Source: Dictyostelium discoideum
Lineage: Eukaryota
Direction: 5' to 3'
DNA: 64,000 bases
Assembly (NCBI GenBank): GCA_000004695.1
Contig: CM000150.2
Span: forward strand, 1,568,001 to 1,632,000
Part shown: positions 1,279-50,524 of the stretch, piece by piece
How positions within the stretch are numbered: position 1 is the first letter of the stretch
How the letters are laid out: each line of letters starts with the position of its first letter
Position numbers and translations under genes: made by a program
The notes under the pieces: generated by a model
Seen by the model: only the letters and a program-made list of their open reading frames with translations
The model's database searches: none
What the model was told of the DNA's origin: nothing

Positions 1279-2190
1279 TTAATGAGAAGTAACTTTTGAA
1301 TATCTTTTAGTGGTAGCAGACGAATAACTATCCTGAGAACGAACTTTAGCTGGTGGTCTACCATCGATTGGGACATAGTTTCTAAACCATTCACCTTTGT
1401 AAACTTGACGTGGACGATAGATTTTAGTTTCTGGATCTTCTAAATGTTCTACCCAATGAGCTAACCAACCAACGGCACGTGGAATAGTGAATAAAACTGG
1501 GAACATATCAGTTGGGAAACCCATTGCTTTATAGATGAGACCAGAGTAGAAATCAACATTTGGATAAAGTTTTCTGCTTACAAAGTATTCATCTTCCAAG
1601 GCTTGTTTCTCCAACTCAGTGGCTACTTCAATCAATGGTTCTTTACCTAAACTTTCGAAAACTTCATAAGCTACTCTACGAATGATCTTGGCTCTTGGAT
1701 CATAGTTTTTGTAGATTCTATGACCGAAACCCATTAATTTCTTCTTTTTGCTCTTTACATCTGAAATGAATTGTGGAATATTCTCTTTGGAACCGATATG
1801 AATTAACATATCCAATACGGCCTCATTGGCACCACCATGAGATGGACCATATAATGCACCAGCGGCACCAGCAACACTTGTGTATGGATCGGTACCTGAT
1901 GATGAAATATGTCTCATTGCAGCGGTTGAACAATTTAATTCATGATCTGCATGAAGAATGAATAAAATTTCCAATGCACGACATAAAACTGGATTTGGTT
2001 TATAGTCTGGTTCTGATAATTTATCCAACATATACAAGAAATTCTCTGTATAACCTAAATGATTCACTGGTGTATTATATGGACGACCAATACGATGTCT
2101 CCATGCACATGCTGCAATTGTTGGTAATTTACCAACAATTCTATAAATTTGTTTATTTCTAACATTTTCACTTTTAAAAATATCTCCACC
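1279..2190 (-). CDS. cshA: citrate synthase, peroxisomal type, exon 4 (last; stop at 1279-1281)
   Basis: Citrate synthase motifs ([47 protein letters not shown]). Acceptor TTTAAAG|GGT at 2191-2192, phase 0. Confidence 0.9.
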
Positions 2191-2292
2191 CTTTAAAAAA
2201 AAAAAAAAACAATAATAATAATAATAAATTAATAATTAGAATCTTTTAAATAAAATAATTATTTTTCTTTTTAATTTTGTATTAATACATAC

Positions 2293-2632
2293 AGCTAAAG
2301 CAGGATTTGCTTCTGGATAAAAAGTACCTAAAGCTGCAACAGTACTAATTAACATACCCATTGGATGAGCATCATATCTAAATGTTTTCATAAGACCAAC
2401 CAAATTTTCATGAAGAAAAGTATGAGTCATAATTTTATTACTCCAACCATCTAATTGTGATTTATTTGGTAAGTTACCATTGATTAAAAGATAAGCAACC
2501 TCTAAAAAGTTTGATCTTTCTGCTAATTCTTCAATTGGATAACCTCTGTATCTTAAAATTCCTTTATCACCATCAATATATGTAATGTATGATGTTACAA
2601 CTGCTGTATTTTGGAAACCTGGATCATAAATC
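2293..2632 (-). CDS. cshA: citrate synthase exon 3
   Basis: Continues the CS N-terminal domain (IYDPGFQNTAVVTSYITYIDGDKGILRYRGYPIEELAE...HPMGMLISTVAALGTFYPEANPALA). Donor GTATGT at 2292-2287. Confidence 0.85.
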
Positions 2633-2740
2633 CTTTAAAAAAAAAAATAAATAAAAAAAAATAAAAAATAAAAAATAAAATAATTAGTAACTTGAATCTA
2701 AAGTAATATTTGAAAAAGAGAAAAAAAAAAAAAAACTTAC

Positions 2741-2866
2741 ATTAAACCACCATCACCTTTGGCTAATTGTAATTCTTTAAAGTTTAAAGCATTAATAGTG
2801 TCATTTTTAATTTTGAAATCATAGCTTTTACCATTTCTATTATCTGTAACTGTAACTGTCTCTTTT
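2741..2866 (-). CDS. cshA: citrate synthase exon 2
   Basis: KKETVTVTDNRNGKSYDFKIKNDTINALNFKELQLAKGDGGLM. Acceptor AAAG at 2868-2867. Donor GTAAGT at 2740-2735. Phases consistent. Confidence 0.8.
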
Positions 2867-2869
2867 CTT

Positions 2870-2913
<44 letters not shown>

Positions 2914-2999
2914 GGAATAATCAATAATATAATTGATAAAATGTTAGTATATATGAAATTAAATAAAAATTATATAATTAAATTTTAATATGAACTTAC

Positions 3000-3100
3000 T
3001 TTTTATCAGCAGAAACTGGTGAAGTTAATAATTCATTTTCTTCTTCTTCTTCCTTTGAAAGATGATTGGCAAGTATATTAATACGATCAATATGTGCCAT
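3000..3100 (-). CDS. cshA: citrate synthase exon 1 (start ATG at 3100-3098) encoding an N-terminal PTS2-like signal
   Basis: MAHIDRINILANHLSKEEEEENELLTSPVSADKK. RINILANHL fits the PTS2 consensus R[LI]x5HL. Donor GTAAGT at 2999-2994. Total CDS 1476 nt = 491 aa. Confidence 0.8.
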
Positions 3101-3701
3101 ATTAAAAATATATATTTATAAAATAATAAATATAAATTATGTATTCAAATATATAAAATTATAAATAAAATAATAAAATAAAAAAATAAAATAGATTGAA
3201 GAAAAAAAAAAAAAAAAAAATAAATAATTGAAAAAAAAAATTAAAAAAAAATAATAAAAAAAATTTAAATTGTATACACAGGGGTGAATTTATTTTTTTT
3301 TTGTTTTTTTTTTTTTTTTCATATTTTTTTTTTTTAATAAAAATTAATTTTTATTCAATTTAATTGAAAATTTCAAAAAACCATAATGTCATAAATCTCC
3401 ATTTTTGGTTGATGCTATGGACATAAATGAATTGTTTTTAATTTTTTTAAGTAAATCATAGTGTTATGAAATTTCATATTAAGATAAATAGAGAAAGATT
3501 TTTATGATTTTAAATTAAAAAAAGTAAAATTTACAATGGAATGATTTTGGTGATTAAATTTTATTTTTTAGAAAAAAAAAAATAAAAAATAAAAAAAAAA
3601 AATAAAAATAAAAAAAAAAGAATAAAAAAATCAATGTTTCTATTGGTATCCAGATTTTTCTTTTTTTCTTTTTTTTTTTTATTATTTTTTTTTATTTTCC
3701 C

Positions 3702-3732
<31 letters not shown>

Positions 3733-4844
3733 TTGTAAAAGGTTTATAAAGATAAAAATGGGAAATAAAGATAGGTTTGGGATTAGGAAATTTTATTTGG
3801 AATTTTGGTAAAAGGAAGAATTTGAAATAAAAAAAAATAAAAAAAAAAAATAAAAAAATTATTTCTGATCCAAAAAAAAAAAAAAAATAATAAAAAAAAA
3901 AAAATTAAAATATTAATATTTTAAAAAAATACATAAATAAATTTATTGGGGTTTGGGAAAAAGATATTTTTTTTTTGGGATTTTGGTAAAAGAAAAAAAA
4001 AAAATTTTAAAAATAAAATATAATTTTTTTTTTTTTTTTTTTTTAATTTTATTATCCTATTATTTTATTTTTTTTTTTTATGATTATTTGATCTTACCTT
4101 TGGTGAATGATTTTGGTATTATTTGAATATTATTAAATATTACAAATTCAAAAAAAAAAAAAAAGACTGTGTTTCACCTTTTAAAACTTGTGCTAAAATT
4201 AGAACATATGGAAATGAAATTCAATTTTTGGTTATTATTTATTCTTAAAATTTTTTTTAAGAATTTAATTTTCATAAGGATTACCAAACACCAATTTTTT
4301 TTGATTTGTTTTTTTTTTTTTTTTCTTTTCTTTTAATTTTATTTTTTTTTTTTATTGGTATTTGGAACAATAATATTATTATTAATGCCTTTTCGTTTTT
4401 TTTTTTATTTTTTTTAATTTTTTGTTTTTTTTTTTTTTTTTTGTGATTATTTTTCGAGCCGTTTTTTAAAAGAATCTTGGTGTGTCATAGTGAAATAATA
4501 TGAGGAGCCAATGTGTGCCCCAGATGATGATGGAAAAGTCGACTTCTTTTTTTTTTTATTTTTTTTTTAATTTTTGGAATTATAGAAATTATTTAACCGG
4601 TATGCCGAATGAGTTTTATATTTTTTATTGTGTAATGGCATCATAATTTTTTTATTTTTGAATAGAATTGATTTGAAAGATCATGCAAATGAAATTAAAA
4701 GGCGAGAAAAAAAAACTTTTTTAAAAAAAAAAAAAAAAACAATGTTTTGCATACCCCCCAACCCCTTATAATCGGTCATGAGACTAATTTTAATCCACCA
4801 ATTATCAATTTTATTTTTATAATTATTAAAATAAAAAATAAAAA

Positions 4845-4878
<34 letters not shown>

Positions 4879-5088
4879 ATATTTGTTTCTATAACCTTTT
4901 GCTAGCAAATTATAATTGTTTTTTTTTTTCTTTTTTTTATTTTTTTTTTTTATTTTATTTTTTAAATTTTTTAGATATATACAATAATTTGCATTGCAGC
5001 ACATTATTTTATTTTTAATATTATTTTTATTCATTTTTATACCATTGCATATTAAAATTAAATTATTTGTTTTTTTTTTTTATTTTAC

Positions 5089-5139
<51 letters not shown>

Positions 5140-6563
5140 CGAAAAAGAATAAACAAATATCTCTTTTTCTGTTTTTTTTTTTTTTTTTTTAATCACAAAC
5201 CTTTATATATACTCACAACGTTGTTAAAGTTAGAAACGAAAAACTCAAGCAAAAGCTCGTCTCACCTCTCGACTCCACTTGTTGGATTAGACTGCCTGAA
5301 GAAGAGTCTTTTTAAAAAGAAAGTCCTAGTTAGTTAGTCCTTAAGATTTGGATTATCCTTCTGCTGTGAAATTATTTGAAGGATATCTTGCTTATTATAA
5401 TTAACTTTCAAATTCCAACCTTTTTTTTTTTTTTACTGGATTAAATCAAACCCCAATCCAAGAAAAAAAAAAAAAAAAAAAAAATAATAATTATTTTTAA
5501 AAAAAAAGGAGGGAAAAGAAATCATCATCATTTCTTTGATCCATTACATCTTTAATTTTAAATATATATATATTTTTTTTTCAAAAATATATTAATCATC
5601 ACATTCAGTCTCAATTGATTGTGTTGTATTATCATTTTCAATTTTAATTATCAAATTAAAAATTGTATCAATTTAAACAAAAATACACACACACAATTCA
5701 TTGACTTTTTTTGTGTTTGATTAAATATCAATTTGGCCACTCCCCACCCCCTCAATTAGCCAATTCAAATTTATTCAGTTTTACTCATTAATTAATTGTG
5801 TGTAGTAGCTGCTTATAATTTTTGGGTATAATTTACACTTATACACTTAATTTACAACAATGCTATTTATGGCATTCAAATAATTAACTCTGTAACCCTT
5901 TTTTTTTTTTTTTTACTATTTATTTATAATTATTATTATTATCATTTTTTTTTTTTCATTTCCATTTTACACTTTTTTTTTTCTTCTCAAATTTTTTTTT
6001 TTTTTTTCTTCTATTTATAATTAATATAATTAAACATTTATTATATTAATTTTTTCTTTTTTTTTTTTTTTTATACAACGGATAGATTTCCCACCTCCTT
6101 TTTTTCATTTTTATAAATTCATTCACACATTCTAATTCACACACCTTTACATCTCACACACTAAATTCACACATTCACCCCCACCACCATTATATTCATA
6201 GACATATTTTGTTTTGTTTTTTTTTTTTTTTCTTTTTTCATTTAAATCACAATTGTTTTTTCGTAAAATATTTATAATTTACTCACATCACCCACACAGT
6301 TTTTGTATTATTTACAAATATTTCATTATTTTTTGTTTTTAATTACACATTTTGTTTTTTTTTTGTTTTTGTTTTTTTTTTTTTTTTAATTTATTTTAAA
6401 ATCAATTATATACCCTTTTAAATATATTTATTTATTTTTTATCAATTTATTTGCAATTGTATTGCGCCTATTTATTATTTTTTTTAAATCCATTTTTTTT
6501 TATTATTTTTTTTTTTTTTTTTTTTAAATTTTTATTCATACCAAATTAGTATTTTAAATCAAA

Positions 6564-6614
6564 ATGCAAGATACATTAATTACCGCTACAGTAAACAATT
6601 GCAACATTAACAAC

Positions 6615-6654
<40 letters not shown>

Positions 6655-6746
6655 GTAAAAATAGTAAAAATTTCAATACATCTGATTTATATAACTCTGT
6701 TTCAGATTATAAAGTTGAATCAATCACCGAATTTCAAATTAATCAA
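6564..6746 (+). CDS. PHD-finger protein exon 1
   Basis: ATG at 6564. Donor GTATGT at 6747. In phase with exon 2. Confidence 0.55.
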
Positions 6747-6906
6747 GTATGTATAATTTATTAATTTTTTTTTTTTTTTCTATTTTTAAATATTAATAAT
6801 ATTAATTTTTTTTTTTTTCTTTTTCTTTTATTTTAATTTATTATTATTTATTATTATTATTTATTTATTATTATTTTTTATTATTATTTTTTTTTTTTTT
6901 AAATAG

Positions 6907-7086
6907 ATAAATATGGAACAACAATCAACTAAGAAACGAAGTGCATCTACACTATCAGCACCACCATCAACATCTTCATCAGGAGAAGAAGACAATATTA
7001 TAAATAAAAATAATAAAAATAATAATAATAATAATAATAGTACTAATAATAATAATTCATCAAAAAAGAAGAAAAGAATTTCAAAT
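6907..7086 (+). CDS. PHD-finger protein exon 2 (basic NLS-like KKKKR)
   Basis: Acceptor AATAG at 6905-6906. Donor GTAATT at 7087. Phase 0. Confidence 0.6.
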
Positions 7087-7200
7087 GTAATTATTTAAAA
7101 TTTATAAATAATCAAATATTATAATTTTATTAATCAACATGTTTTTTTTTTTTTTTTATTTTTATTTTTTTTTATTTTATTTTATTTTTTTTTTACATAG

Positions 7201-7986
7201 GAAACAAATGATGATGATAAACCAAAAAGACCAAGAAAGAATGAAGCAGTTTGTACTTTTTGTGAAAAGCCAGGTGAATTATTAATGTGTGATGGGTTAT
7301 GTTTAAGATCATTTCATATTAGTTGTTTAAAAGCCAGAAACTTATATAACCCAAGTTCATCATCAATATCACCAGTTACAACAATTGATGGAACAGTTCG
7401 TTGGGAGTGTAATGATTGTGTTAGTTCTCAAAATTCATGTTTTTCATGTAAAAAGAGAGGTATAATTGGAATTGATTTGATGAAATGTAAAGTTCACCAA
7501 TGTGGTAAATTTTATCATTATAAATGTGTTGCAGATTATAAACTTGCCAAACTTATTAATACTAAAACCCCACGTTTTAATTGTCCACTTCATTATTGCT
7601 CAGTTTGTGAAGTGTCTGGTGATGGTAAACAATCAGTACACTGTTTTAGATGTCCAACTGCCTATCACGTAATTTGTATGCAACCTGGTGTTAAAATGCT
7701 AACTAAAACTAGAGAAACTCGTAAAACTGGTTTAGTCTTATGTCCGAAACATATTGGTGAACAAAATCCACATGATCATGATCAAATCCATAATCATACC
7801 CACACCCACACCCATACCAGTCAATCAAATATCTCATCAACCTCATCTTCATCAGTACCTTCATTAATTATCTCATCAACTTCTGCCATTGGTAGTATAA
7901 ATACAAGTGGTGAAATTTTCCAATCATCACCACCATCATCATTAACTAGAAAATCATCAATTCCAACTAGTATTATCACGAAATCA

Positions 7987-25659: not shown

Positions 25660-25919
25660 TTAATTACAACCACATGAACCAGAATAATAACCATAGCTAT
25701 AACTATAACTGTAAGTTGATCCTGATGCAGTTGTATATGAACCTGCATTAGAATCAATGTTAGTATAATCAGAAGGTAATCTTTTTCTACCATTACCACC
25801 ATTACTACCACATGAACCACATGCAATTGAATTAGAACCCATTGATAAACTTGATCCACCACCATTTGCAACACTTGATTTGCTTGATTTCATTGGGTTT
25901 GAAATTGAAATTAATGATG
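25660..25919 (-). CDS. hssA/B-like (hssA/2C/7E family) small Gly/Ser/Tyr/Cys-rich protein, copy A exon 2
   Basis: [27 protein letters not shown]...SCGCN. Acceptor TTTTTAG at 25921-25920. Confidence 0.7.
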
Positions 25920-26006
25920 CTAAAAACAATTTATAATAATTGTTAAAATTAGTTTTTTTTTTTTTTTTTTTTTTTTTTTATTTTAAATATGTATTTTAAA
26001 ATTTAC

Positions 26007-27914: not shown

Positions 27915-28168
27915 TTAATTACAGCCACATGATGATGATGAAAAGGATGAACCGTAACTATATGTGTAACCATATTGATAAGTTGGTGAAGTGTAGGTGT
28001 AATAGGTTGTTTGAGAACCATCAGAATTATTAATTATACCAGATGATGAATTACCACCACCACATGAACCACATGCTACTGAATTGGCACCCATTGATAA
28101 TTTACTACCACCATTTGCAACATTTGAATTGCTTGATTTCATTGGGTTTGAAATTGATGTTAATGCAG
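27915..28168 (-). CDS. hssA/B-like copy C exon 2
   Basis: [21 protein letters not shown]...SCGCN. Acceptor AATTAG at 28170-28169. Confidence 0.7.
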
Positions 28169-28760: not shown

Positions 28761-29011
28761 TTAATGACAACCACATGATGATGAACCTGATGAACTATAG
28801 CTATAACTATAATTGTATGTGTAAACTGGTGAAGTGTAAGAGTAATAAGTTGTTTGAGAACCATCAGCATTATTAATTGTACCAGATGATGAGTTACCTC
28901 CACCACATGAACCACATGCGACTGAATTGGTACCCATTGATAATCTACCACCACCATTTGCAACACTTGATTTAGTTGATTTCATTGGGTTTGAAATTGA
29001 AGTTAATGCAG
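28761..29011 (-). CDS. hssA/B-like copy D exon 2 (ends SCGCH)
   Basis: Acceptor CTTAG at 29013-29012. Confidence 0.7.
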
Positions 29012-29569: not shown

Positions 29570-29820
29570 TTAATGACATCCACATGATGATGAACCAGAT
29601 GAACTATAGCTATAACTATAATTGTATGTGTAAACTGGTGAAGTGTAAGAGTAATAAGTTGTTTGAGAACCATCAGCATTATTAATTGTACCAGATGATG
29701 AGTTACCACCTCCACATGAACCACATGCGACTGAATTTGAACCCATTGATAATCTACCACCACCATTTGCAACACTTGATTTAGTTGATTTCATTGGGTT
29801 TGAAATTGAAGTTAATGCAG
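29570..29820 (-). CDS. hssA/B-like copy E exon 2
   Basis: Acceptor ATTTAG at 29822-29821. Confidence 0.7.
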
Positions 29821-30475: not shown

Positions 30476-30729
30476 TTAATGACAACCACATGATGAAGAT
30501 GAACCTGATGAACTATAGCTATAACTATAATTGTATGTGTAAATTGGAGAAGTGTAAGTGTAATAAGTTGTTTTGGAACCATCAGCATTATTAATTGTAC
30601 CAGATGATGAACTTCCACCACCACATGAACCACATGCGACTGAATTTGAACCCATTGATAATCTACCACCGCCATTTGCAACACTTGATTTGCTTGATTT
30701 CATTGGGTTTGAAATTGAAGTTAATGCAG
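30476..30729 (-). CDS. hssA/B-like copy F exon 2
   Basis: Acceptor AATTAG at 30731-30730. Confidence 0.7.
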
Positions 30730-42000: not shown

Positions 42001-42864
42001 CCAAAAAATAACCACACACCCACTAATTTATTGTAAATATGGTTTTAATGAAATAAAAAAAACAAAAATAAAAACAACAATAATAAAAACATTGAATGGG
42101 GTCACAATTTAGAATTTCCACCCAATCATTTTTTTTATTTAAAACATTTTCTTAATTTAGCTACTTTAAAAAAACACAGTAGAAAAAAAAAAAAAAAAAA
42201 AAAAAAAAATAATAAATAAATTTTTAATTAATAATTATATTTCTCAATGTTCATTTGCAAAGATATAATCACCCATTACTCTATCATCACTATCACAAAA
42301 ACCCAACACAACCACTTTTTTTTTTTTTAAATTAAAATCAAAAAACACTTTCTCACCAAAAAATAAAAAACCCACAGTTCTCTAAATTTGCTTTCCAACC
42401 ATTTAATTATTTCTTTAAGAAACAATATTTGATTGCAACTACTCATCATATATATCATTATTAATAATATTATTATTATATTTTATTTTCATTGATTTCT
42501 TTTTATTATTTTTTTCAGTTTTAATTTGCTCATTGCCAATAATAATTTAAAAAAATAAAAATAAAAACAATAATAAAATTTCAAAACAAAAAAAACTTTT
42601 TTAATTATTAATAATAATTAATAATTTTTTTTATTATTTTCACTTTCTGTAAACATTTCTATACTTTTGTTATTATCTTAGATCCACATTGTTATAATGG
42701 TATTTGTTCTACACTTTAAACCTTCTATTGACGTTTTAAAACAGAAATCTAACTATCCTCTATAATTAAATATTTTTTTGTTTCTTCATTTATCTAATTA
42801 TAGTGGTCAACTTTTTTTATCAAAATTTAATTGGATGTGGCTTGCATCCTAAATCAAACAGATA

Positions 42865-42879
42865 GGGAGATCGGTACAC
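42865..42879. repeat. target-site duplication (left copy) GGGAGATCGGTACAC
   Basis: Identical 15-mer at 47405-47419, immediately outside the element's A-tail. Confidence 0.75.
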
Positions 42880-42998
42880 TTTTTTTTTTTTTTTTTTTTA
42901 CCTGTGATCAGACCTTCAAGGAATGTCCTTGTGTCTTTTCGGCGGTGTTTGTTAAACGGTTTTATTTTTATTATTCAATTGTATTAAATTTTTTAAAC

Positions 42999-43077
<79 letters not shown>

Positions 43078-43082
43078 ACTAC

Positions 43083-46000
43083 TTAAATTGGAAGAGGGTT
43101 CGGAGCTGCTGGGGTTTGCCAGGCTTTGTTGAATTTGTATTTGTGAAGATCTTGATTGGTGTTTTTTAGTATTGCTTCGTCGTGTTTGATTTTCTTTAGT
43201 GTGATGAATTTTTCAGTTTCGATGAGATTTAGTAATTCTGTTTCTATGACCTTTTGCTCGAATTTTGGCTCTGGTTTGCTTTCATCAGTGTTGAACAATT
43301 TGTGACAGATTATCTTCCATAATTGGTGTGCTATTATTCCTATGAGATTGGGGAAGATTCTCTCAGTTCTGTTGTATTTTGATATGTCTAAGGTATCCAT
43401 TGACCATCTGTGGATTTTGATGAATGATAATTTGTTAACTGTTGATATGATGGTTTTTTCAATATCTAGGATATCTTGGCATAGAGTGAAGAGGTGAGAA
43501 TAAGGGTCTCTGAATAGGTGGCCACAGATCTTGCATCTGGTGTCTCTTTCGTGGTTGATACCTGGAAGTGATCTTGAGAAGAATCTGAAGAGGGTGTTTC
43601 TACCTTTTTGGTGAGAAATGCTGTTGATGTTTATGAATACTTTGGGTATTTCTGTGTTGTATCTCACCGCCCATAACTTCTGCCATTCTGTTCTTCTTGG
43701 TGTTGGGTGTCTGTCTTTGATCATGAGTTCGTAAATTTCTTTCAGTTTTAGTGGTTCATCATTGTCGTTTCTTATACAGTCTGGAAGTTCATTTATCTTT
43801 GGATGATTTTGGTAAAATTTGACTCTGAATACACCCCAGTGTCTGCACATATCGTTGAGGGTTGAAGTGTGGGCTTTTTTTCTACTTAATTGCTCCATGT
43901 ACCATTCTTGTAAAGTATTGTTGTTGTTGTTGTAGTTGTTATGGAGTAGCCTGTTCATGTACCAGATTTTGAATGCTATATGTCTTAGTTCTATATCCCA
44001 TAATTTTATGCCTCCTTCTTTCCAATCTGCATATGCTCTGTCTATTTTCATCATAGTTTTGTATTTTCTCTCTTCTGTATATGTATTCTTAACTGAGGAG
44101 AATAAGAACCATCTGGTCATGTTATTGATTTCCTCAATTTGTTCTTCATTTAGATTATCCATGTATTGATGGTATGTTAATTTGGATAGAACGTATGTTT
44201 TGAGAATTGTCATCTTTGCCTTCATCGTTATTGCTTGTGATTTCCATTTGATTAGATTGTTTTTCATTTCTTGGATTAAAGTGTTGTATTTTGAATTTAA
44301 ACCTGTTTTGGTGAAATTGAGGCCAAGATATCTTTCTGGGACTGTACTCTCTTGGAATGGTAGATCGTGTGGTTTATCTCCTATTGCTATCATTACTGTT
44401 TTCTCTTTGTTTAACGATGATGATGTTGCTGAGCAGTACTTTTGGATTTTAGTATTAATTTTCATTAGTTCTTCTGTGGAGTTTGTAAAGGTTGCTATGT
44501 CGTCAGCAAATGCAGTGAGTTTTAATGATTTGGAATTTGGTAGAGTGAAGCCTTTGATTGTATTATCATTGATGATATCTATTAGAAGTGGTTCTAAAAC
44601 TAGAGCAAAGATTGTTGGTGATATTGGGTCTCCTTGTTTTGTTCCTCTTCTGATTGTTATTCCATTGACTAAAAAGTCGTTGATCTTTATTTTGTTTTTA
44701 GTATCTTTGAGTAGGTTTAGTAGGATCGCTGTGAATTTTGGGGGGATACCAATATGCTCTAATGTTCTTGTGATACTCTTGTGGCTGATTGAATCGAATG
44801 CTTTGTTAAAATCGTAAAAGGTAATGAGTGTATTGTTCTTTCTTTTGTTACTTATTTCTATTACTTCCTTCATGATCTGAATATTGTCTTGGATGAACCT
44901 GTTTGGAACAAAGCCGTTTTGAAATTTGTTGATAATTTTACTGGTGATATCTAATAATCTACTGTTGAGAATTTTGCTTAAAATTTTGTAATCTGTATTG
45001 AGAAGGGTGATTGGTCTTCTATTTGAAATGTTTAGTTCATCTCCTTTTTTGAATATTGTTGTTATTACTCCTTCTTTGAATTTTGTGGGGATTTCTTTCT
45101 TATTTGTGAGGAGGTCGTTGAAAGCTATAGTCAATATTCTTGCTATTGAGTTGATGTGGTACTTGTAGAATAGTGCATTGATACCGTCTAAACCTGGAGA
45201 TTTGTGGATACTTGAAGTTTTGATTGCTTTGGTCACTTCATGTATTCTTATTGGTCTGTCTATCTCTAGTTTCTTGATTAAATCAACGTCTACTTCCCAT
45301 TTTTCTAATAACTTCTTGTGGGTTTCTTCGTTATCTTCTTTCTCTTCATATTGATCTTGATAGAATTCAACAAATCTTTTTGCTATGTTCTCTTTATCTG
45401 ATATGGGCTTATTATCTTTATCTTTTATTTGGAATATTGATTTATCTTTGGCTCTGGATTTAAGGATACTTGTGAGGTATTTGCTTGGTGTTTCTTGATG
45501 CAGGTGGAGTTTTAATTTGATATCCCATGCTTTTACCTTTCTTTCTTCTTCTAATATTCTACTTATTTCTTCATTGAGTTCTTTTCTCATCTTTGGAATG
45601 ATATCACTATTTTCAAGTAATTTGTGGATTACGTATTTTCTTTTGTTCTTTTCTTTCTTTATTTTGTTTTGTTCTTTTTTTAAATAATCTCTGATGACAT
45701 TATTTTTAAATTTCGTCCATTCCTCCACTGATTTGATCTTATCTTTGTTCTTACTGATTAATTCTGATAACCCATCATGTATATGTTTGTTGTTGAGAAT
45801 TTCTTTACATAATGTCCAAGGGAGTCTTTCTAGTTTGGTTGTTGTTGTTGTTGTTGTTTCTCTGTTGGTTTGTATTGAGATTGTGATGGGAAAGTGATCT
45901 GATTTGTTAAATACTGTGTTGTGGACTACCAATTTTGAATTTTGGTTTAGTAGTGTTGGATGACAGTAGATTCTATCTAGTCTCTTCATTGATCTTGGAA

Positions 46001-46526
46001 ATGTTGGAGTGTTTTCTTCAATACCAGTATCTAGTAGCATGTCTTGGTCTATTATTTTACGTAATTCAGTACCGAAGAAGCTGTTGCAATCGTGGTTGTT
46101 ATTGAAGTCGCCTGCTATTATTTGATGGTTGATTGAATTATATTTTTTAAACAGTGATTTTGAGTTGATTATGAAGGTGTTTCTTTCAGATATAGTCGCT
46201 GGAGCATAGATCAATAATATGTTGATAGAATTAAAGGAATTGTATTTAATTGATAGTATTCTACCATCATCGTCTTTGAAGTTTATTGATATGTGGCCTT
46301 TTCTTGTATCTCTATTTTCTATTGCTATGCCAGTTCCTTTACCTGAACCATGATCTATTCTTTCAAAGTTGAACATTGTTTTGTGGTGGTTGAATCCATT
46401 GAAATTAGTTTCAGTTAGGAGTGCTAATTGAGTGCCAATTCTTTTTATCGTTTCTTCTGTTTTATTCTTAGCGTTGGTTGATTGATTACCTCTGCAGTTC
46501 CATAGTAATAATTTTAATTGTTCCAT
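43083..46526 (-). CDS. retrotransposon ORF2: apurinic-endonuclease-like domain plus reverse transcriptase
   Basis: N-terminal APE-like region (LLLWNCRGN..., SDHFPITI). RT motifs (FYDFNKAFDSISH; LTAFADDIATFT). Confidence 0.85.
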   Translation of the reverse strand: MEQLKLLLWNCRGNQSTNAKNKTEETIKRIGTQLALLTETNFNGFNHHKTMFNFERIDHGSGKGTGIAIENRDTRKGHISINFKDDDGRILSIKYNSFNSINILLIYAPATISERNTFIINSKSLFKKYNSINHQIIAGDFNNNHDCNSFFGTELRKIIDQDMLLDTGIEENTPTFPRSMKRLDRIYCHPTLLNQNSKLVVHNTVFNKSDHFPITISIQTNRETTTTTTTKLERLPWTLCKEILNNKHIHDGLSELISKNKDKIKSVEEWTKFKNNVIRDYLKKEQNKIKKEKNKRKYVIHKLLENSDIIPKMRKELNEEISRILEEERKVKAWDIKLKLHLHQETPSKYLTSILKSRAKDKSIFQIKDKDNKPISDKENIAKRFVEFYQDQYEEKEDNEETHKKLLEKWEVDVDLIKKLEIDRPIRIHEVTKAIKTSSIHKSPGLDGINALFYKYHINSIARILTIAFNDLLTNKKEIPTKFKEGVITTIFKKGDELNISNRRPITLLNTDYKILSKILNSRLLDITSKIINKFQNGFVPNRFIQDNIQIMKEVIEISNKRKNNTLITFYDFNKAFDSISHKSITRTLEHIGIPPKFTAILLNLLKDTKNKIKINDFLVNGITIRRGTKQGDPISPTIFALVLEPLLIDIINDNTIKGFTLPNSKSLKLTAFADDIATFTNSTEELMKINTKIQKYCSATSSSLNKEKTVMIAIGDKPHDLPFQESTVPERYLGLNFTKTGLNSKYNTLIQEMKNNLIKWKSQAITMKAKMTILKTYVLSKLTYHQYMDNLNEEQIEEINNMTRWFLFSSVKNTYTEERKYKTMMKIDRAYADWKEGGIKLWDIELRHIAFKIWYMNRLLHNNYNNNNNTLQEWYMEQLSRKKAHTSTLNDMCRHWGVFRVKFYQNHPKINELPDCIRNDNDEPLKLKEIYELMIKDRHPTPRRTEWQKLWAVRYNTEIPKVFININSISHQKGRNTLFRFFSRSLPGINHERDTRCKICGHLFRDPYSHLFTLCQDILDIEKTIISTVNKLSFIKIHRWSMDTLDISKYNRTERIFPNLIGIIAHQLWKIICHKLFNTDESKPEPKFEQKVIETELLNLIETEKFITLKKIKHDEAILKNTNQDLHKYKFNKAWQTPAAPNPLPI

Positions 46527-47398
46527 TATTTTCTAATACTACTGGCAATTGGAAACTTGGTACCATTGCTTGTAGTAATTTTATTGATAGGTTTTGTAGT
46601 AGTAGTAGTAGTAGTAGTAGTTTTGTTTAGGTTGTAGATTGTTGTATTGCTTGTTGGTAATTGATGTGTGGTTGTTGTTGGTGTGGTTGTTGTTTGTGTG
46701 GTTGTTATTGGTGTGGTTGTTATTGGTGTGGTTGTTGATGTATTAGTTGTTGGTGGAGTTGATGGTATTGATTTAGTTGTATTTGTAGTTGTTGGTTGTT
46801 GGTTTTTATTACTTGTGTTTTTTTTTTTTCTAACATCTCTTATTTCTTTATTGTTATATTCAGAGATGAAGGCTCTTATTGGATGCTTACTACCTTTTAT
46901 AGCATCAATGTTTGTTTTAATGATTGAGATATCATCTTCTTTATTAAATAATAGTATGCATGAATATCTAATCACATCTGGTAGCATTACTATGTTGCAT
47001 TCATCTATTAGTAATGGCTCCAATCCCCAGTTTTCTTTTACCATTTGATTGTTTATTTTTTTTATTATGTTTTTTGTAAATGTGTAAAAGTGGACATAGT
47101 GATATCCTGGGGTGTAAAGTATGAATTTTTGCAGTGGGAAATCTTCATACTTGAAAGTGCTGTAACACTCGTGTAATAATGTGAATTTTTCTTTTAGTAT
47201 TCTACCGAATACTGTTATACCCTTTTGTCTTCTGACAATGTTAAGAGTACCATTAACTATGAAATTATCTATTAATTTTGTTGAATTACTATTTAATTCC
47301 AAGGTATTTGGGTAGAATAACCTTATTTGAATAGTTTTTTTATTTAACTCTTCTTCGCCTAAGTTGAGTTCACCTTTAAGTTTATCGAAAAAATTCAT
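46526..47398 (-). CDS. retrotransposon ORF1 (nucleic-acid-binding protein; Thr/Pro-rich C-terminus)
   Basis: First ATG at 47398-47396. Stop overlaps the ORF2 ATG at 46526. The listed M at 47431 is a non-ATG start in flanking DNA. Confidence 0.7.
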   Translation of the reverse strand: MNFFDKLKGELNLGEEELNKKTIQIRLFYPNTLELNSNSTKLIDNFIVNGTLNIVRRQKGITVFGRILKEKFTLLHECYSTFKYEDFPLQKFILYTPGYHYVHFYTFTKNIIKKINNQMVKENWGLEPLLIDECNIVMLPDVIRYSCILLFNKEDDISIIKTNIDAIKGSKHPIRAFISEYNNKEIRDVRKKKNTSNKNQQPTTTNTTKSIPSTPPTTNTSTTTPITTTPITTTQTTTTPTTTTHQLPTSNTTIYNLNKTTTTTTTTTKPINKITTSNGTKFPIASSIRK

Positions 47399-47404
47399 TT
47401 TTTG

Positions 47405-47419
47405 GGGAGATCGGTACAC
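47405..47419. repeat. target-site duplication (right copy) GGGAGATCGGTACAC
   Basis: See left copy. Lies 6 nt upstream of the ORF1 ATG in element orientation. Confidence 0.75.
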
Positions 47420-47469
47420 GAAGTGGAACACTCTCCATAATTCTGCCCAGATTTACAAATAATTGTAAT

Positions 47470-47484
47470 ATCCGAAGTTCGGAT
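47470..47484. promoter_or_regulatory. palindrome ATCCGAAGTTCGGAT 25 nt downstream of tRNA-Pro: external B-box-like element (GTTCGGAT ~ B-box GGTTCGANTCC)
   Basis: Identical element at identical spacing downstream of the second tRNA copy (50415-50429). Confidence 0.55.
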
Positions 47485-47508: not shown

Positions 47509-47579
47509 GGGGAGATCCGAGAATCGAACTCAGGACGCTACCACCCAAAGGTAGCATTATACCACTTAACTAATCTCCC
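47509..47579 (-). tRNA. tRNA-Pro(UGG): tRNA-Pro (anticodon UGG), 71 nt
   Basis: Cloverleaf read from sequence: acceptor GGGAGAU/AUCUCCC, D-arm GUUA..UAAU, anticodon stem CUACC/GGUAG, loop UUUGGGU, T-arm CUGAG-TTCGATT-CUCGG. A- and B-box-like internal sequences. Confidence 0.9.
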
Positions 47580-50414: not shown

Positions 50415-50429
50415 ATCCGAAGTTCGGAT
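50415..50429. promoter_or_regulatory. second copy of the ATCCGAAGTTCGGAT palindrome, 25 nt downstream of tRNA-Pro copy 2
   Basis: Exact repeat of 47470-47484. Confidence 0.55.
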
Positions 50430-50453: not shown

Positions 50454-50524
50454 GGGGAGATCCGAGAATCGAACTCAGGACGCTACCACCCAAAGGTAGC
50501 ATTATACCACTTAACTAATCTCCC
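50454..50524 (-). tRNA. tRNA-Pro(UGG): tRNA-Pro (UGG), second identical copy
   Basis: 71/71 identity with the copy at 47509-47579. Same orientation. About 2.9 kb apart. Confidence 0.9.

Follow-up and report, generated by a model that had tools for sequence, protein, structure and literature searches.

What occupies the 4.5 kb directly behind a tRNA-Pro(UGG) gene of Dictyostelium discoideum, how did it come to lie there, and is it still able to move? The locus was analyzed within a window of 64,000 nucleotides (the whole stretch of DNA studied here; assembly GCA_000004695.1, contig CM000150.2, positions 1,568,001 to 1,632,000), and the insert is most probably a TRE3-C element, that is, a D. 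discoideum tRNA-gene-targeted retrotransposon without long terminal repeats (a non-LTR, or LINE-type, element) of the TRE3 group. As such it is an already known and ordinary member of an element family that has been described since 1999 and is annotated in the reference genome; TRE3-C itself was reportedly described by Szafranski et al. 1999, Gloeckner et al. 2001 and Spaller et al. 2016.

All coordinates refer to the window unless a locus is named, and because the element lies on the minus strand its features are read 5' to 3' on that strand. A poly(A)-tailed non-LTR retrotransposon of 4,525 bp (42880-47404, minus strand) fills the interval between two copies of a short direct repeat. An earlier reading of the sequence alone (hereafter the original prediction) had claimed a perfect 15-bp target-site duplication about 105 bp downstream of tRNA-Pro(UGG), with element and gene in the same orientation, and measurement bears out both the duplication and the position. 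The 15-mer GGGAGATCGGTACAC occurs in exactly two perfect copies in the window, one at each boundary of the element; the match breaks off at the very next base on both sides, and a search allowing up to two mismatches returned no further match in the 64 kb, with none expected from shuffled sequence. Of the loci fetched from other assemblies, none but the same locus of another D. discoideum genome has the 15-mer, which argues against its being a common genomic motif. Between the 3' end of the tRNA gene and the duplication lie 89 nt, so the first base of the element stands 105 nt past the tRNA end, and from the start of the gene's internal B box (GAGTTCGAT) to the duplication the distance is 110 nt; tRNA gene and element are both on the minus strand. 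Comparison of the element with the rest of the window gave no other match, and it therefore has no LTRs. Outside the element the window has a G+C content of about 20%. The integration target is held by a relatively G+C-rich block of ~58 bp (~42822-42879 plus 47420-47431), in which GTGTTCCACTTC, GTGTACCGATCTCCC and TATCTG...GGATGCAAGCCACATCC follow one another and which is unique in the window.

The coding capacity of the element agrees with what had been predicted in the lengths of its two uninterrupted open reading frames (ORFs), in the APE and RT domains of ORF2, in the FADD motif and in the overlap between the frames. ORF1 ('Gag') encodes 290 amino acids (aa) from its ATG, and ORF2 encodes 1,147 aa with an APE-type endonuclease and a reverse transcriptase (RT), both matched above the Pfam cut-offs. 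The ORF1 stop codon TAA shares one base with the ORF2 ATG at 46526 (TAATG, in AAAATAATGGAA), which places ORF2 in the -1 frame. A -1 frameshift arrangement has been reported for TRE3-A and TRE5-A (PMC5911963), though ORF2 has an ATG of its own here and reinitiation is therefore equally possible. A Pfam search of ORF1 returned no family, and ORF1 homologues are confined to the D. discoideum species group. An AlphaFold2 model of ORF1, built on a 7-sequence alignment, is confident only over aa ~97-180, where a beta-alpha-beta-beta-alpha-beta unit is predicted.

Both proteins tie the element to a family that is present in AX4 and in other D. discoideum assemblies. ORF1 is residue for residue identical to the AX4 protein DDB_G0268582 and falls in the same 90% cluster as the D. 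discoideum 'Gag' AAD43058.1 of GenBank, and ORF2 is 99% identical to a protein of likewise 1,147 aa (P0001). The 90%-identity cluster of ORF2 holds 55 sequences, including DDB_G0281455, DDB_G0289107 and others of AX4 and many proteins from other D. discoideum assemblies, and the best relatives of ORF2 are all Dictyostelium proteins. Three other genomic copies were fetched from loci in newer D. discoideum assemblies. The first (L001) lies co-oriented behind tRNA-Phe(GAA), is flanked by the duplication TTTCACCCACAGTTAAA and has an internal deletion of ~1.9 kb; the second (L003) lies co-oriented behind tRNA-Leu(UAA), is flanked by CAATCTAAACAAA and has both ORFs open; the third (L007) lies inside a cluster of transposable elements. 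The family is a young one of D. discoideum, and the coding DNA of its copies is 98.7-99.6% identical. The tRNA-Phe gene of L001 (7838-7911, plus strand) is doubly occupied. Upstream of it lies a TRE5-A-type element (~1500-7790, minus strand) that has a 454-aa ORF1 and is oppositely oriented, and downstream of it lies the TRE3 copy. At L007 6962-7012 the poly(A) tail is followed by the 14-nt CACCGCTTTTAGGT and then by a second poly(A), and the 14-nt piece has the appearance of a second, tandem insertion reduced to a minimal 3'-end fragment.

TRE3 elements are defined by insertion ~100 bp (40-150 bp) downstream of tRNA genes and co-oriented with them, by two ORFs with an APE-RT-zinc finger order of domains, and by an oligo(A) tail (PMC5006619; PMC5911963). 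The duplications of L001 and L003 both start 72 nt past the tRNA gene and 93-94 nt past its B box, so that three independent copies, behind tRNA-Pro, tRNA-Phe and tRNA-Leu genes, are found 72-89 nt downstream of the tRNA, co-oriented with it and bounded by duplications of their own of 13-17 bp. The window element itself is inserted downstream of its tRNA gene and co-oriented with it, has the two-ORF non-LTR architecture, and carries ORF2 in the -1 frame overlapping ORF1. Position, orientation and architecture thus match the published definition and support the TRE3 assignment, as had been proposed from the sequence of the window.

Which subfamily is present is a finer question. The accession of the GenBank Gag, AAD43058.1, adjoins that of Pol AAD43057.1, which belongs to an A/B-type family, and this presumably fits a 1999 series of TRE3-A, B and C submissions. 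We take AF134169-AF134171 (proteins AAD43054-AAD43059) to be TRE3-A, B and C in that order, in which case AAD43058 would be the Gag of the third record, and we treat this as a lead, not as a test. The published subfamilies differ in length and abundance, with consensus sequences of 5,229 bp for TRE3-A (67 copies in AX4, 13 of them full length), 5,279 bp for TRE3-B (43 copies, 9 full length) and 4,734 bp for TRE3-C (29 copies, 2 full length), and a partial consensus of 1,559 bp for TRE3-D (11 copies, none full length; PMC5006619 Table 1). Tested by length, the 4,525 bp found here together with a missing leader of ~100 nt compare with the 4,734 bp of TRE3-C, the elements of the present family measuring 4.5-4.6 kb. 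The family of Pol AAD43057.1 (1,275 aa, 33% identical to ORF2) is represented by a copy of ~4,995 bp that starts 62 nt behind a tRNA-Asn gene (L004); by that length it belongs to the TRE3-A/B class and is not the present family. By BLASTP, ORF2 has a slight preference for TRE3-A/B-type pol (33-34% identity, 450-465 bits) over TRE5-A (32%, 402-411 bits), and TRE5-type ORF2s overall reach 31-32% and 382-411 bits. A TRE5 best match, which would have spoken against the original prediction, was not found in these pairwise comparisons, and the near-equal distance to the two groups fits the published remark that the RT of TRE3-C tends to group with TRE5 (PMC5006619).

The same locus could be followed in two further D. 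discoideum genomes. One (L005; GCA_054883475.1), retrieved through a flanking gene for a 1,272-aa protein, has the same insertion with the same duplication and is 99.9% identical in the large blocks that align around and across the element. Together with the identity of ORF1 to the AX4 protein, this places the window in the reference (NC4/AX4-like) lineage of D. discoideum. The other (L006; GCA_054859385.1) is a diverged isolate, retrieved through a homologue of the flanking gene, whose flanks are 87-90% identical. Its orthologous region has kept the two tRNA-Pro genes together with the same flanking genes, but the element was looked for there and is absent, the interval 42833-47431 having no counterpart (site at L006 ~6470). 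The insertion is a presence/absence polymorphism between D. discoideum lineages; it is younger than the split of the L006 lineage and older than the split of the two near-identical assemblies. The empty-site comparison suggested beforehand hence delivered an ortholog free of the element, though not a clean empty site. The flank of the paralogous tRNA-Pro gene shares only ~45 nt, the target not among them. The insertion had also been called recent, which holds in so far as it is absent from a lineage ~10-13% diverged, but the date is a relative one, for the copy has ~9 private substitutions and is shared with L005.

Comparison of the copies also shows where the element begins and ends. In L003 and L007 the ORF1 ATG is preceded by a common A/T-rich leader of ~75-100 nt (...ATATTTTTATATAAACACATAATTAAAAAAAAAATAATAAAAATAATAT-A(n)-ATG; L003 2903-3000, L007 ~2395-2500), which is missing both in the window copy, where CAAAAA remains, and in L001 (0-3 A). 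In two of the four copies the 5' end thus falls exactly within the A-run next to the ORF1 ATG, suggesting a recurrent 5' end. The slight 5' truncation suspected at the outset is real, and the description of the element as intact holds for its coding part, in which both ORFs are open and the catalytic motifs present, but not for the element as a whole. At the other end, the terminal block of the 3' untranslated region (UTR), ...GATCACAGGT, is present in all four aligned copies. A transduced or separate fragment was considered as the source of the block past the internal A-run and was ruled out, all four copies holding it inside their duplications. The length of that A-run, 67 A in the window against 33 A at the identical locus in L005, suggests homopolymer instability, a strain difference, or an error of assembly or sequencing. 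Relative to the majority of the other copies, the window copy has ~9 private substitutions in 4,316 coding nt, four of which change an amino acid (ORF1 A220T; ORF2 A217S, T374P and A959E). The FADD and CCHC motifs are free of private changes, and only A217S lies close to the border of a domain, immediately beyond the APE match (aa 8-211). At T374P (window 45407) proline occurs in the window copy only, with threonine in every other copy, including that at the same locus in L005.

How such an insertion would have arisen, and what would have guided it, we infer by analogy with TRE5-A and other APE-type non-LTR elements. The element mRNA with the ORF1 and ORF2 proteins would be directed to the RNA polymerase III complex on tRNA-Pro(UGG), where the ORF2 endonuclease would nick the DNA downstream of the tRNA at a distance of ~90-105 nt, or ~110 nt counted from the internal B box. 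By target-primed reverse transcription the RT would then start from the poly(A) tail at this nick, and a second-strand cut staggered by 15 bp would give rise to the 15-bp duplication. The process would have stopped, in reverse transcription or at 5' joining, within the A-run directly ahead of the ORF1 ATG, which would leave both ORFs open while the A/T-rich leader of ~75-100 nt was lost.

Two alternatives bear on the identity of the element. One explains the 15-bp repeat as a motif that matches by chance or was there beforehand, and the nearness of a tRNA gene as coincidence, the element being a generic LINE without tRNA targeting or a TRE5. It can appeal to GATCTCCC, which lies inside the 15-mer and occurs also at the 3' end of tRNA-Pro itself, and to the closeness of the ORF2 identities with TRE5-A (32%) and TRE3-A/B-type pol (33-34%). 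Yet we reject it as hardly conceivable, given that the 15-mer is found only at the two junctions, with no other occurrence at up to two mismatches in 64 kb, and that behind other tRNAs three further copies are each flanked by a junction duplication of their own. Moreover, TRE5 sits ~50 bp upstream of its target in opposite orientation (PMC5911963), as does the TRE5-A copy in L001 (cluster P0008, with the 454-aa ORF1); the window element, downstream of tRNA-Pro(UGG) and co-oriented with it, does not. More plausible than this, but still improbable, is membership in another TRE3 subfamily, either TRE3-D or an unnamed sister lineage. There is indeed a rarer sister family (P0005/P0044; DDB_G0269266 of AX4 plus Logan contigs) with the same architecture and an ORF2 of 1,149 aa that is 59-60% identical to the present one and nearly complete in AX4, so that one of the two families is not TRE3-C. 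Several further points weigh against our reading. The letter C, which taken by itself is probable, was assigned from length, relative abundance and the accession order; the copy falls ~200 bp short of the 4,734-bp consensus, a deficit of which the missing leader explains only about half; ORF2 separates weakly from TRE5 (33-34% versus 31-32% identity); and the empty site in L006 is also without ~58 bp that include the 15-mer, the single unduplicated target not being observed directly. Against another subfamily stands the greater abundance of the present family, which with 55 cluster members versus 14 and several full-length copies fits TRE3-C (29 copies, 2 full length) and not TRE3-D (11, none). 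TRE3-D was described later. We therefore retain TRE3-C for the window element, and the sister family may be TRE3-D, in which case the published partial consensus of 1,559 bp could be extended to near full length.

Whatever its letter, the window copy may still be transcribed and mobile, to which the main competing view is that it is a fossil, intact in its coding sequence but transcriptionally dead, its promoter possibly lost with the 5' leader; we give this view a little less than even weight. The A-module of TRE5-A carries the promoter. The 5' UTR of that related element is organized in defined A- and B-modules (PMC5911963), and in the window copy CAAAAA is all that precedes the ATG, against ~75-100 nt in L003 and L007. 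The four private amino-acid changes could point the same way, but all private changes lie outside the FADD and CCHC motifs. Furthermore, L001, an independent copy, breaks off in that same A-run, so RNAs or cDNAs without the UTR may be a regular product. In many LINEs the promoter is located downstream of the start site, transcription could be driven by flanking A/T-rich DNA, and ORF2 proteins from the window copy could still act in trans. A bolder proposal, which we regard as unlikely, would be that TRE3-C regularly makes leaderless, coding-complete RNAs and that UTR-less copies still propagate, and further that the ORF1 core (aa ~97-180), predicted to be ferredoxin/RRM-like, links the ORF1 of TRE elements, in the literature said to resemble nothing, to the RNA-binding ORF1s of other LINEs.

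The features of the element and of its surroundings are collected in Table 1. A second, identical tRNA-Pro(UGG) gene lies 2.9 kb away (50454-50524, minus strand), with no retroelement behind it. Both tRNA-Pro genes are followed by the palindrome ATCCGAAGTTCGGAT, which in the divergent strain with flanks 87-90% identical is intact behind one of them and has one mismatch behind the other, the neighbouring bases having diverged; being B-box-like, the palindrome may be an external B box. Elsewhere in the window stands a tandem family of five small genes on the minus strand for Gly/Ser/Cys-rich proteins of 74-89 aa (...SSCGCH), with repeat units 82-90% identical.

Table 1. Positions of the element, its parts and neighbouring features in the window
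Feature	Position	Strand	Details and basis
tRNA-Pro(UGG), targeted RNA polymerase III gene	47509-47579	-	ARAGORN; Rfam RF00005, 57 bits
Palindrome ATCCGAAGTTCGGAT	47470-47484 and 50415-50429	.	25-39 nt downstream of each tRNA-Pro gene
Target-site duplication, element 5' end	47405-47419	-	Second exact copy of the 15-mer
Residual 5' leader CAAAAA	47399-47404	-	Truncated remnant of the A/T-rich 5' UTR of the family
ORF1 ('Gag'), 290 aa from ATG	47398-46526	-	Uninterrupted; N-terminal domain of ~190 aa, then Thr/Pro-rich tail
ORF2, 1,147 aa	46526-43083	-	Uninterrupted; APE, RT, CCHC zinc-finger-like motif
APE endonuclease, Exo_endo_phos PF03372	ORF2 aa 8-211; 45894-46505	-	Pfam, E 1.2e-09
Reverse transcriptase, RVT_1 PF00078	ORF2 aa 493-737; 44316-45050	-	Pfam, E 2.6e-36
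FADD motif in RT	ORF2 aa 671-674	-	Motif search
CCHC zinc-finger-like motif C-X2-C-X12-H-X4-C, CKICGHLFRDPYSHLFTLC	ORF2 aa 998-1016; 43479-43535	-	Motif search
3' UTR, 183 nt	42900-43082	-	Variable internal A-run, then conserved G+C-richer terminal block ending ...GATCACAGGT
Internal A-run in 3' UTR, 67 A	43008-43074	-	25-38 A in other copies; 33 A in L005, same locus
Terminal poly(A) tail, 20 A	42880-42899	-	Abuts duplication; 20 A in L005, 15-17 A in other copies
Target-site duplication, element 3' end	42865-42879	-	GTGTACCGATCTCCC on minus strand; directly after poly(A) tail
Small tandem gene 1	25660-25929	-	
Small tandem gene 2	27915-28142	-	
Small tandem gene 3	28761-28985	-	
Small tandem gene 4	29570-29794	-	
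Small tandem gene 5	30476-30703	-	

The locus is a clean textbook case of TRE3 targeting, which carries little weight beyond annotation and raises no new biological question. Its practical interest lies in the copy itself, which may be one of a very small number of TRE3-C copies with intact ORFs in the reference strain, given the two full-length copies of the literature. Such an ORF-intact copy would be a reasonable template for tagging TRE3 in a mobility assay modelled on that of TRE5-A (PMC3159450), and the insertion is usable as a presence/absence marker between D. discoideum lineages.

Among known systems the closest is TRE3-C, with which the element shares its host species, its length class (4.5 kb here, 4.73 kb in the consensus), two overlapping ORFs with an APE-RT-zinc finger ORF2, the poly(A) tail, co-oriented insertion ~70-105 nt downstream of tRNA genes, and an RT about equidistant from TRE3-A/B and TRE5; the differences, namely the lack of the ~75-100-nt leader in the window copy and its unusually long internal A-run of 67 A, are nothing essential. 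TRE3-A and TRE3-B (Tdd-3 type; the family of AAD43057.1 and L004) have the same target zone, orientation, domain order and poly(A) tail and likewise make a duplication (12 bp in L004), but ORF2 is only 33-34% identical to theirs, which has 1,275 aa in an element of 5.0-5.3 kb; their 5' UTR of ~145 nt is not A-rich, and the L004 copy lies closer to its tRNA (49 nt). TRE5-A (DRE) belongs with the element to the L1-clade, APE-type superfamily of LINEs, has an ORF2 with the same APE-RT-zinc finger order and also targets RNA polymerase III genes, but it inserts ~50 bp upstream of the tRNA in opposite orientation (PMC5911963) and differs in its modular A/B/C UTRs, in an unrelated ORF1 of 454 aa and in an ORF2 of 32% identity. 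Finally, the dictyostelid Ty3/gypsy LTR retrotransposon Skipper-2 lands in the same zone downstream of tRNA genes (PMC5006619), although it is an LTR element with an integrase and is unrelated in sequence and in mechanism.

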